A stretch of DNA of 45,709 nucleotides from Candidatus Wallbacteria bacterium (GTDB lineage: Bacteria; Muiribacteriota; UBA6191; JACPRK01), in assembly GCA_016213845.1 (NCBI GenBank), contig JACQZN010000062.1, positions 1 to 45,709 on the forward strand, read 5' to 3'. This document shows positions 34,490-39,393 of the stretch, in pieces. The notes beneath the pieces were generated by a model. It had not been told where the DNA came from and made no database searches. It was given only the letters and a program-made list of their open reading frames with translations. Made by a program: the position numbers and the translations under genes. Numbering within the stretch: the stretch's first letter is position 1; the number at the start of each line of letters is the position of its first letter.

Positions 34490-37201
34490 TCACTTGAACG
34501 TCACGCTGCGGCCCAGCTTGAATCGGTAGTGCTTGCGGTAGCGCTCCCAGAGCGTCGGCTCCAGGCTGTCGTTGTAGACGAGCTCCAGCGGTTCCCAGTC
34601 GCCGTCGCCGCGCGCGAAGAGGTTCTCCGGTGAGACCTCGAACGTGTTGGTTCCGAACCGGTTGCCCGGAGGAGTCGTTTCACGGAGCAGGCCGTCGCCC
34701 AGTTCCAGGTGGTCGACAGCTACCGAGCCGACGATGCGCAGCCGCCCGCCTCCGGGCCCGCGACGGATCGTGCCCGCCTGCGGGTCCAGGGCCACGAGCG
34801 AGGCATGGATCTCGGAACCCTTCACGACGATGGCGCCTGTGACGCTCACCACGGCAAATGGCGGGACGGTCACGCGCCCGCGCGGAACGGCCGGTGGCTC
34901 CGCGGCCATCCGCACGTCGGATTCCAGCGTCACCGGGCCCTGGAAGACGACGGTCCCCGGCCCGTCCACCACCAGCGGGCGCCCCGTCGCGCCGAGGACT
35001 GCCGGCGCGGCCTCCGCGACGTAGACCAGCTCGCCGTCCAGCCTCAGCCGCACGACGGCCGGATCGCTCTCGTCGAGCATCGTGCGCTCAAAGTCCGCGA
35101 TCGTGGCAAAGAGGTGGGTTGCCTTGCGGCGCAGGTCGAAGCCGGCCGGCGAACCGGCCTGGCTGCCGAGCTGAAAACCGCTCGAGAAGAGCGAGAGCGC
35201 CCTCAGGTTGCCCCTGAAGAGCGCCCTGGGCGCGTCGGCCCGCCAGGCGGAATCGGGGTCGGCGGCGTCCGTGAGCCGGGCGCCGCGCAGCTCGAGCGAG
35301 CCGCCCGTGTAGACGGGGCCGTTGGTGTCGTAGAAGAAGGCTTCGTCGGGCTCGGCAGCGGCGCCGGCCCGGCCCAGCGTCACCAGCGCTGCTCGCGCCG
35401 CGGCATCGGCGAAGACGCGCTTGCTGTAGAGGCTGGAGCGCGGCGGCTGCGTCACGTTGTTGGCGAGGATCGTGTCGGCCGAGTAGAGGTACGGTTCCTC
35501 GAAGAATCGGCTCATCGCGAAGTTCTTGTAGTAGATCTGGTGCGGGCCGGCCGGCAGGAACGCCTCTGCCAGGTACCAGGTGCGACGCGTGAAGAGGCCC
35601 GGCAGCGCGGGCGGCACTCCGGCTGATGGGTCGGCCTCGTCGACCTGGTTCCAGACCGCCGTGAACTCGGGGGTGGTGGAGCGGTTCTGGCCGCCTGCGT
35701 CGATGTCGAACCAGGGAAGATAGGTCGTCTTCTGGCGCGCGGCCTGGGGCGGGTGGGTGAAGGGCTCCGGCGCGCCCGTGGCCGTGCCGCGCTCGTAGTC
35801 GCTCTCCTGATGGACCGAGCCGATCGCGAGCGACTTGCGCCGGACCGGGCCCAGCACCATCGTGGGCGAGCGACTGTCCCGGTATCGGCCGGCGTCGAGC
35901 TGCTCTGAACCGAAAAGATGCAGCAGAGCTGGATGATGCGTTCGGTAGTCCGACGTCGAGTAGCCGACGTCTGCCGCCGCCGCACGGTAGTAGTTGGAGA
36001 ACGTGTGCCGGAGGTCTTCCAGTCCAGGCAGGCCGTGCTCCATGTCTCGAGAGACGGAGCAGAAGTTGAAGAACTGGAGCTTGAACCTGAGCGAGGCGAT
36101 GCCGGGCATCGGACTGGCGGGGATGGTCGCGGGGAACTGGGGACCGGAATTGTCGAACGTCGCTGACTTCATCAAGGGCGAGGCGCCTGTGAAGGTCGTC
36201 GCCATCAGCTCCGCGACGTCGGCAGTGTGGAAGCGCTCACCGGCGTAGCGTCGGGCAAGCTCCGGCGGGTAGAGCGACAGGTTCACCTTCCCGCCCAGAT
36301 AGTCGTAGATCTGCCCCGACGTCAGGTTGAGCACGGTGCCCTCGGGGGCCGGAGTGCCGAGAAAGACCCAGCCCTTGTCGAGGAAGCCGGCTCGCACGTC
36401 GGAAGCGTCGAACTGGCGCGCGCCGCCTGCCGGCAGCTCGCCGCCGGCACCGACAGGGGCTCCGTCGGTGTCCAGGTCGGCGCCGGTATGGATCAGCGTT
36501 AGTGGCCGCGCAGGAGCGGACTCCGCCACCAGTCCTCGGCACAGGTAGCTGGTGGCGTCCAGGTAGAGGTTGTTCAGATGACGCGGACTGCCCTTGCCCG
36601 CGGCGGCGGGGTCCTGGTCGCGGACGAAGAGAGTGAACTTCGTCACCGCGTCCGGCAGCGGGTGAACGAGCTTGAAGGCTTGCTTGACGCTCGACTCCCG
36701 ACTGAAGCTCTCGTGTCGGACGCGAATCCGGAAGACCGCCCAGCCCTGGCACTCCTTCGGATCGGGAACCACTCGCGCCTGCGTGGCCCAGTCGAGCCCG
36801 CCGGCGTCGGGCACGTGGAAGGGCTGGATCTTCTCGAAGTCGACCGAGGCCTCCAGAGTGAGCTCGAGCTCCTCGGCCAGTGCCGTCGATACGGGGAGCG
36901 GGGGAGTGAGCGAAAGCGCCGAGAGCCTGGAGGAGTCGGCTGCCGGGTCGTCCAGGAACTGTGCCAGCTCGGGGATGGCGCCTGGGCCGGCGAAGCCGCT
37001 CTGGAGCCATGCCGCGGCTTCGGCCATCGCCCCATCCAGGAGGACGTCGGCTTGCACGGTCAGGTAGAAGCGGCGGATGGCGAAGCGATTTTCCCGCGAG
37101 AACTGCAGCAACCCCAGCCCGACGACGCACGCCACCAGGAAGACGCCGATCACCAGGGCGATGGCGAACGCGGCGCGGCCGCCTGGGCGCGGCAGGCTCA
37201 A
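34490..37201 (-). CDS. Large (903 aa) membrane-anchored, probably extracytoplasmic protein of unknown function
   Basis: TTG start at 37201 overlaps the stop of the upstream peptidase gene (TTGA). N-terminal signal-anchor AAFAIALVIGVFLVACVVGLGLL, then about 870 aa of non-repetitive sequence with balanced composition (F/Y/W/N/K present), unlike the surrounding artefact ORFs. No domain recognised. Confidence 0.55.
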   Translation of the reverse strand: MSLPRPGGRAAFAIALVIGVFLVACVVGLGLLQFSRENRFAIRRFYLTVQADVLLDGAMAEAAAWLQSGFAGPGAIPELAQFLDDPAADSSRLSALSLTPPLPVSTALAEELELTLEASVDFEKIQPFHVPDAGGLDWATQARVVPDPKECQGWAVFRIRVRHESFSRESSVKQAFKLVHPLPDAVTKFTLFVRDQDPAAAGKGSPRHLNNLYLDATSYLCRGLVAESAPARPLTLIHTGADLDTDGAPVGAGGELPAGGARQFDASDVRAGFLDKGWVFLGTPAPEGTVLNLTSGQIYDYLGGKVNLSLYPPELARRYAGERFHTADVAELMATTFTGASPLMKSATFDNSGPQFPATIPASPMPGIASLRFKLQFFNFCSVSRDMEHGLPGLEDLRHTFSNYYRAAAADVGYSTSDYRTHHPALLHLFGSEQLDAGRYRDSRSPTMVLGPVRRKSLAIGSVHQESDYERGTATGAPEPFTHPPQAARQKTTYLPWFDIDAGGQNRSTTPEFTAVWNQVDEADPSAGVPPALPGLFTRRTWYLAEAFLPAGPHQIYYKNFAMSRFFEEPYLYSADTILANNVTQPPRSSLYSKRVFADAAARAALVTLGRAGAAAEPDEAFFYDTNGPVYTGGSLELRGARLTDAADPDSAWRADAPRALFRGNLRALSLFSSGFQLGSQAGSPAGFDLRRKATHLFATIADFERTMLDESDPAVVRLRLDGELVYVAEAAPAVLGATGRPLVVDGPGTVVFQGPVTLESDVRMAAEPPAVPRGRVTVPPFAVVSVTGAIVVKGSEIHASLVALDPQAGTIRRGPGGGRLRIVGSVAVDHLELGDGLLRETTPPGNRFGTNTFEVSPENLFARGDGDWEPLELVYNDSLEPTLWERYRKHYRFKLGRSVTFK

Positions 37202-39393: not shown

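Follow-up and report, generated by a model that had tools for sequence, protein, structure and literature searches.

What a gene pair in Candidatus Wallbacteria is for, when one member encodes an exported enzyme and the other a very large protein that matches no known family, is the question raised by this locus. We refer to the two proteins as P1 and P2, and to the whole 45.7-kb stretch of DNA that was analysed as the window (Table 1). Our preferred reading, to which we give a probability of roughly 0.6, is that P2 and two Glu5 pilins encoded beside it make up the tip module of a type IV filament, and that a C45 enzyme, P1, has been acquired in this lineage. A sequence-only reading of the same DNA had framed the question as one of two proteins, and left out of its frame the two divergent pilin genes (39459-40726) that lie just beyond it.

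Table 1. Features of the P1-P2 locus in window coordinates. Arrows mark predicted processing positions.
Feature	Position	Strand	Description
P1	37198..39393	-	731 aa; ATG start with GGGAGG in front
P1 predicted signal peptide	39328..39393	-	about residues 1-22, MRSAPMLLAISLVLTLSATLWA; read from the sequence by eye
P1 C45-homologous core	38596..39222	-	residues 58-266; G(T/S)HxxxGxAHG block, RxxD (R185, D188), GxN (N233)
P1 Cys162 codon	38908..38910	-	predicted N-terminal nucleophile and autoprocessing site G161↓C162; translation AGFGCTAVA
P1 C-terminal 13-mer	37201..37239	-	GTGGASNPT[ML]GQP; conserved; preceded by a variable Ala/Pro-rich linker
P1/P2 stop/start overlap	37198..37201	-	TTGA (cTTGAg), the TTG of P2 on the TGA of P1
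P2	34490..37201	-	903 aa; TTG start
P2 leader, hydrophobic alpha-1 helix and pilin-like head (predicted)	36623..37201	-	residues 1-193; helix 8-71; strands 115-127, 151-163, 166-179, 189-193
P2 short-strand beta-solenoid-like region (predicted)	34682..35134	-	residues ~690-840, approximate boundaries; high confidence
Small Glu5 minor pilin, PilI/GspI/PilV-like	39459..39920	+	G↓VTLTEVLL; divergent from P1
Larger Glu5 minor pilin, PilJ/GspJ/PilW-like	39917..40726	+	G↓YSVLEVLIG; ATGA overlap with the small pilin gene

The gene pair and its coupling

P1 and P2 are real genes. GC content at the three codon positions (GC1/2/3) is 0.63/0.56/0.90 in P1 and 0.69/0.51/0.87 in P2, every 100-codon block of both genes has a GC3 within 0.82-0.94, and full-length orthologues are known for both proteins (identity 46-59%). 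The sequence-only reading had described two ORFs of ordinary amino-acid composition; its coordinates are correct, both ORFs lie on the minus strand, and the 903-aa frame passes a coding-potential check, with a GC3 of 0.87 that is even along its length. It had also placed the stop of the first ORF over the TTG of the second, and this too is borne out. P1 and P2 are adjacent at four distinct loci, and a 4-nt [T/G]TGA overlap is present at all three junctions read (TTGA in the window, GTGA in L001 and L002), which points to translational coupling that is kept in relatives. A promoter and terminator scan of positions 34300-41000 gave no candidate exceeding shuffled expectation.

P1 as a predicted exported C45-type Ntn hydrolase

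From its sequence, P1 is predicted to be a divergent, exported Cys Ntn amidohydrolase or acyltransferase of the C45/AAT type. The NCBIfam model C45_proenzyme (NF040521) matches residues 62-266 of P1 at an E-value of 1.8e-16, over profile positions 1-182 of 313 and with 60.4 bits against a cut-off of 85. P1 orthologues (P0003, P0004, P0005, L001 and L006; identity 46-99%) match the same model at 1e-16 to 2e-17, and P0004 and P0005 likewise stay short of curated C45 thresholds. As canonical C45 reference we used P0006 and P0007, which exceed the NF040521 cut-off at 95-102 bits, and BLASTP aligns P1 with the latter over residues 58-259 (2e-12). Pfam-A, Peptidase_C45 included, has no match to P1 even at E<=1. 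Membership of C45, as the sequence-only reading had proposed it, is thus upheld as significant homology but not as a match above the curated threshold or in Pfam.

The two signatures on which that proposal had been built, the HYQMGYAHG block and the Gly-Cys processing site, are both present and align with the equivalent sites in proteins that exceed the NCBIfam C45 cut-off. Invariant columns in the alignment of P1, its orthologues and canonical C45 proteins (alignment A3) are G63, H65, G69, A71-H72-G73, C162, R185, D188, N233 and N242. Cys162 is accordingly unchanged throughout, but the residue preceding it is Gly only in the window P1 and becomes Ala in the orthologues, so that the cysteine of the proposed site holds and the glycine does not. 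The proposed 350-aa extension also needs revision: C45 similarity is detectable only in the N-terminal ~200 residues, leaving ~470 residues (~260-731) with no detectable C45 similarity. An AF2 model of P1 has a pLDDT of 39.8 and is unusable, with a beta-rich region at residues 340-560 predicted at low confidence.

The closest characterised comparison is IAT/AAT (C45; PDB 2X1C), which self-processes at Gly102-Cys103 (PMC2692852). P1 has the colinear elements G-T-x-x-x-G-Y-x-H-G, a Cys after Gly, x-x-x-D and G-x-N-x-x-G, and sequence and profile searches of the PDB return a weak colinear match to AAT (2x1c/2x1d); matches to PsaH and antibody light chains in the PDB sequence searches were dismissed as chance. 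In contrast to IAT/AAT, P1 is bacterial, exported, twice as long and under family thresholds, and its sequence offers no recognisable counterpart to the C-terminal half of the C45 fold. The canonical GRNWD reads SRSADW in P1, and the 'TNH' position aligns with TDG.

Export of P1 would be via Sec, given its predicted signal peptide, and all P1 orthologues share a hydrophobic N-terminus. We rejected the possibility that P1 is a lipoprotein (LATC, residues 28-31), as the Cys is missing in P0005 and the site lies well beyond the hydrophobic region. At the opposite end of the protein, the tail GTGGASNPTMGQP is conserved and Pro/Gly-rich. Neither dual coding nor a ribosome-binding site for P2 accounts for this conservation, since codons in this stretch differ synonymously and conservation is stronger in the P1 frame than in that of P2.

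P2 as a predicted pilin with a solenoid

That P2 matches no family is true at the level of sequence. Pfam gives nothing at E<=1, single-sequence and profile searches of PDB sequences found nothing, and the sole NCBIfam match (PqqD, E 0.23) was dismissed. The GspK, PilX, N_methyl and other pilin models of Pfam and NCBIfam match neither P2 nor 17 members of its family, and the scattered Pfam matches among these 17 were set aside as chance. Comparison of the P2 family with the two neighbouring pilin families by hhalign was weak, at probabilities of 1-19%. P2 appears from these searches to represent a new and rare sequence family for which Pfam and NCBIfam hold no model: among 1.84 billion representatives it accounts for just 42 clusters (50% identity), and its labelled genomes are Candidatus Wallbacteria MAGs. 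Searching again with the family alignment brought up no homologues beyond the two proteins already known. The 17-sequence alignment has no stretch conserved enough for a locus search, and a narrower alignment served instead.

At the level of predicted structure, the earlier description of P2 as lacking recognisable domains no longer applies. The AF2 model, of moderate confidence overall (pTM 0.71, mean pLDDT 67, 213 residues below 50), gives P2 a pilin-like head and a solenoid. A 64-residue N-terminal helix is followed by an antiparallel sheet, with pLDDT 77-92 over residues 10-190, an arrangement that corresponds to the pilin fold, in which a long alpha-1 helix packs against an antiparallel beta-sheet. 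Some 700 residues separate the N-terminal sheet from a predicted C-terminal strand (residues 893-902, pLDDT ~82, conserved in the family), and within them lies a beta-solenoid that is modelled as ice-binding-protein-like. The N-termini of the P2 family resemble class III signals, in that a basic leader with Gly at -1 precedes some 20 hydrophobic residues and Glu5 is absent; they read basic-G↓hydrophobic (...RG↓F/M/V-x-L/I-P...), with RRRAG↓IAMF in L001 and L002. The window P2 reads GGRAA↓FAIALVIG, where the residue opposite the conserved Gly -1 looks like Ala and is ambiguous.

A Foldseek search of the PDB with the P2 model returned nothing at E<=0.001, and ComZ ranked first at E 0.42. ComZ of Thermus thermophilus (PDB 6QVI) is a competence-pilus tip pilin for which an ice-binding-protein-like solenoid and similarity to GspK-like pilins have been reported (PMC6561018), and the P2 model shows the same pair of features. 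The two proteins have no detectable sequence similarity, and the P2 family profile (alignment A4) misses 6QVI among PDB sequences at E<=10. P2 is also much longer, at 903 aa against ~500-520 aa for the ComZ chains in the PDB (full length 554 aa), and its ~350 extra residues are modelled with mixed confidence. Finally, ComZ has no coupled enzyme gene, whereas P2 has P1.

Similar comparisons can be drawn with other tip proteins, each with its own differences. The P2 head is structurally similar in the model to GspK/XcpX, which with PilK/PilX represents the minor pilins of the GspI-J-K tip complex. P2 has no match to a GspK-family HMM; it is three times larger, is without the alpha-domain, and has no GspG/H or machinery genes nearby. 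The gene order at P2 loci is K-like, I-like, J-like, or else divergent, and differs from I-J-K. The cyanobacterial PilX family also includes proteins with beta-solenoids (among them the HpsA-like 'PilX-EPS'), and the small pilin of L002 weakly matches the HpsC model; this family belongs to another phylum, shares no sequence similarity with P2 and has no enzyme partner described. PilK-class subunits with large insertions are tip caps (PMC13533445; bioRxiv 10.64898/2026.02.12.705559), and CpaL/TadG is a minor-pilin-like tip protein of ~600 aa that has a large insertion in its middle and whose C-terminal strand acts in cis (PMC13533445). The conserved and confidently predicted terminal strand of P2 recalls the latter, but P2 has neither Tad genes around it nor sequence similarity to these Tad pilus proteins, and its neighbours are Glu5 pilins of the type IVa/T2SS-like kind, not Flp-like.

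Minor pilin genes adjoin P2 across related loci

In the window, a small and a larger pilin gene lie divergently, upstream of P1-P2. The small gene may start at GTG 39459 or GTG 39480, and the start in the public annotation, 39507, deletes the leader. Its orthologue in L002 exceeds the Pfam N_methyl threshold (23.6 bits vs 21.2) and weakly matches the TIGR02523 PilV and GspI models, and Glu5 is invariant in the small-pilin family (alignment A6). The larger pilin matches N_methyl at E 0.005 and TIGR01711 GspJ weakly, and Glu is again invariant in its family (alignment A7). PDB profile searches with both families gave weak N-terminal pilin matches only (E 0.02-0.08).

This linkage recurs. Within the window's own clade, both divergent pilin genes are found in the window/L005 and in L006, and L002 has the small one before its contig ends. 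Elsewhere, a P2-like gene is followed by a pilin of 135-195 aa wherever downstream DNA exists (L007/L014, L016, L008/L017 and L010, twice in each of these last two, L011, L012/L020, L013 and L019), and, except in L019, a Glu5 pilin of 253-359 aa follows too. In no assessable related locus, therefore, is the P2-like gene without a neighbouring small Glu5 pilin gene, and in most the larger pilin gene is there as well; P2 is in this sense encoded with PilI- and PilJ-like minor pilins. Because this adjacency is so general, we take P2 to be, most probably, a giant minor pilin at the tip of a pilus-like filament, and to belong to the PilK/GspK/ComZ class.

The sequence-only reading had taken P1 for a surface acyltransferase or hydrolase and P2 for its membrane-anchored partner or substrate. 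If P2 were a signal-anchored beta-helix adhesin or enzyme that has nothing to do with pili, then the pilin genes beside it would be a coincidence, and we regard this as improbable. A surface activity with a dedicated partner is still compatible with what we find; the partner, given the adjoining pilin genes, would be the tip of a pilus or pseudopilus, and nothing found here marks P2 as a substrate of P1.

Whether the filament would be a pilus or a secretion pseudopilus bears on the fate of P1. No gene for an ATPase, platform, secretin or prepilin peptidase was found in the 45.7-kb window, an absence that counts against our preferred reading too. If P2 tipped a T2SS-like pseudopilus, P1 could be an exoprotein substrate that is released to the medium, and the coupling would do nothing except co-produce cargo and piston tip. 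P1 has a Sec signal peptide without a membrane anchor, as such a substrate would, the likeness of the P2 head to GspK/XcpX fits, P2 with two minor pilins mirrors GspK-I-J, and T2SS payloads touch the tip and yet get released (PMC13533445). Against this, T2SS genes are lacking nearby, the nearest structural match of P2 is the competence/T4P-type ComZ rather than GspK, P2 is without a GspK-like alpha-domain, and the invariant C-terminal peptide of P1, which a flexible linker carries, is more suggestive of tethering or recognition than of free release. Nor are T2SS substrates known to be routinely coupled to gspK in translation. We judge release of P1 as an exoprotein to be unlikely, though the likeliest of the alternatives to the tip module with an acquired enzyme.

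P1 as an accessory of one subclade

P1 occurs only in a high-GC subclade of the P2 family. Because most P2-family members are without P1, it is dispensable for their core function. The accessory genes found upstream in P2-family loci are those for the C45 enzyme, for a 157-aa membrane protein and for a 574-aa helical protein; the last, as encoded upstream of the P2-like genes in L010, has no homology to P1.

This distribution also bears on the idea that P1 is a maturation factor that trims or acylates P2, or the tip complex, in the periplasm before assembly and is absent from the final filament. Translational coupling would suit a maturation factor, as would the fact that P1 occurs strictly together with P2 of the high-GC subclade, and C45/IAT enzymes perform both amide hydrolysis and acyl transfer (PMC2692852). 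Yet in every other clade P2 homologues are present and P1 is not, P2 showed no conserved modification site specific to the clade, and the literature searched offers no precedent, which together make such a role quite improbable, the least favoured of the readings we weighed.

Our literature search found no report of a tip pilin paired with a C45 enzyme, nothing on C45 or Ntn hydrolases and type IV pili or on Wallbacteria pili, and nothing on Wallbacteria surface biology. PilY1 and PilC offer an analogy for P1, being large Sec-exported non-pilins that are encoded in a minor-pilin cluster beside a PilK-class gene and that end in a short conserved peptide (PMC13533445). P1 shares these traits and differs in others: it has an enzyme domain, and no PilY1 or beta-propeller family matches it in Pfam or NCBIfam. 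Nor is its tail likely to donate a beta-strand as in PilY1, being Pro/Gly-rich, and P2 apparently provides a terminal strand itself.

A possible mechanism

By analogy with GspIJK, ComZ/PilA2 and cyanobacterial PilX, P2 and the PilI-like and PilJ-like pilins would form an apical initiation and tip complex that primes filament assembly and displays the solenoid as a ligand-binding cap. P1 may cleave itself at (G/A)161↓C162, yielding a ~15-kDa alpha fragment along with a large beta chain, as its invariant Cys and the IAT precedent suggest, and the stop/start overlap would keep the P1:P2 stoichiometry fixed. It is probably at the filament tip, or by way of it, that P1 acts, either docked there or handed over as cargo; its C-terminal 13-mer, borne on the flexible Ala/Pro linker, is a candidate for the docking peptide. 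The activity of P1 would then be the cleavage or transfer of an N-acyl or amide group on whatever the filament tip contacts. We infer the tip location, the contact between P1 and P2, and the chemistry.

It is conceivable, as our most speculative extension, that the tip is armed with the enzyme: the ComZ-like P2 would carry P1 or deliver it, the 13-mer of P1 would serve as a tip-docking signal of a new kind, and a retractable filament would place an N-acyl-amide-cleaving or acyl-transferring activity on a distant substrate. P2 and the two pilins would then constitute a lineage-specific tip module with interchangeable upstream accessory genes. We hold this full version to be rather doubtful.

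Implications for filament tips and C45 enzymes

Tip subunits determine the binding targets of a type IV filament and the timing of its assembly, and solenoid-bearing PilK-class pilins (ComZ, cyanobacterial PilX/HpsA, CpaL) have recently been recognised as substitutes for PilY1. To these P2 would add a sequence-distinct family of ~900 residues, in one subclade of which the putative tip pilin is co-translated with a predicted exported Ntn hydrolase. Even if P1 and P2 are mere operon neighbours, four 'hypothetical proteins' would still be annotated as a tip-complex module and a C45-like enzyme. If P1 does ride on the tip or is fired by it, then the pair would represent a new functional class of pilus, one that carries out catalysis at a distance, and a place at the tip would provide a first physiological setting for the bacterial branch of C45, which is large and for the most part uncharacterised.

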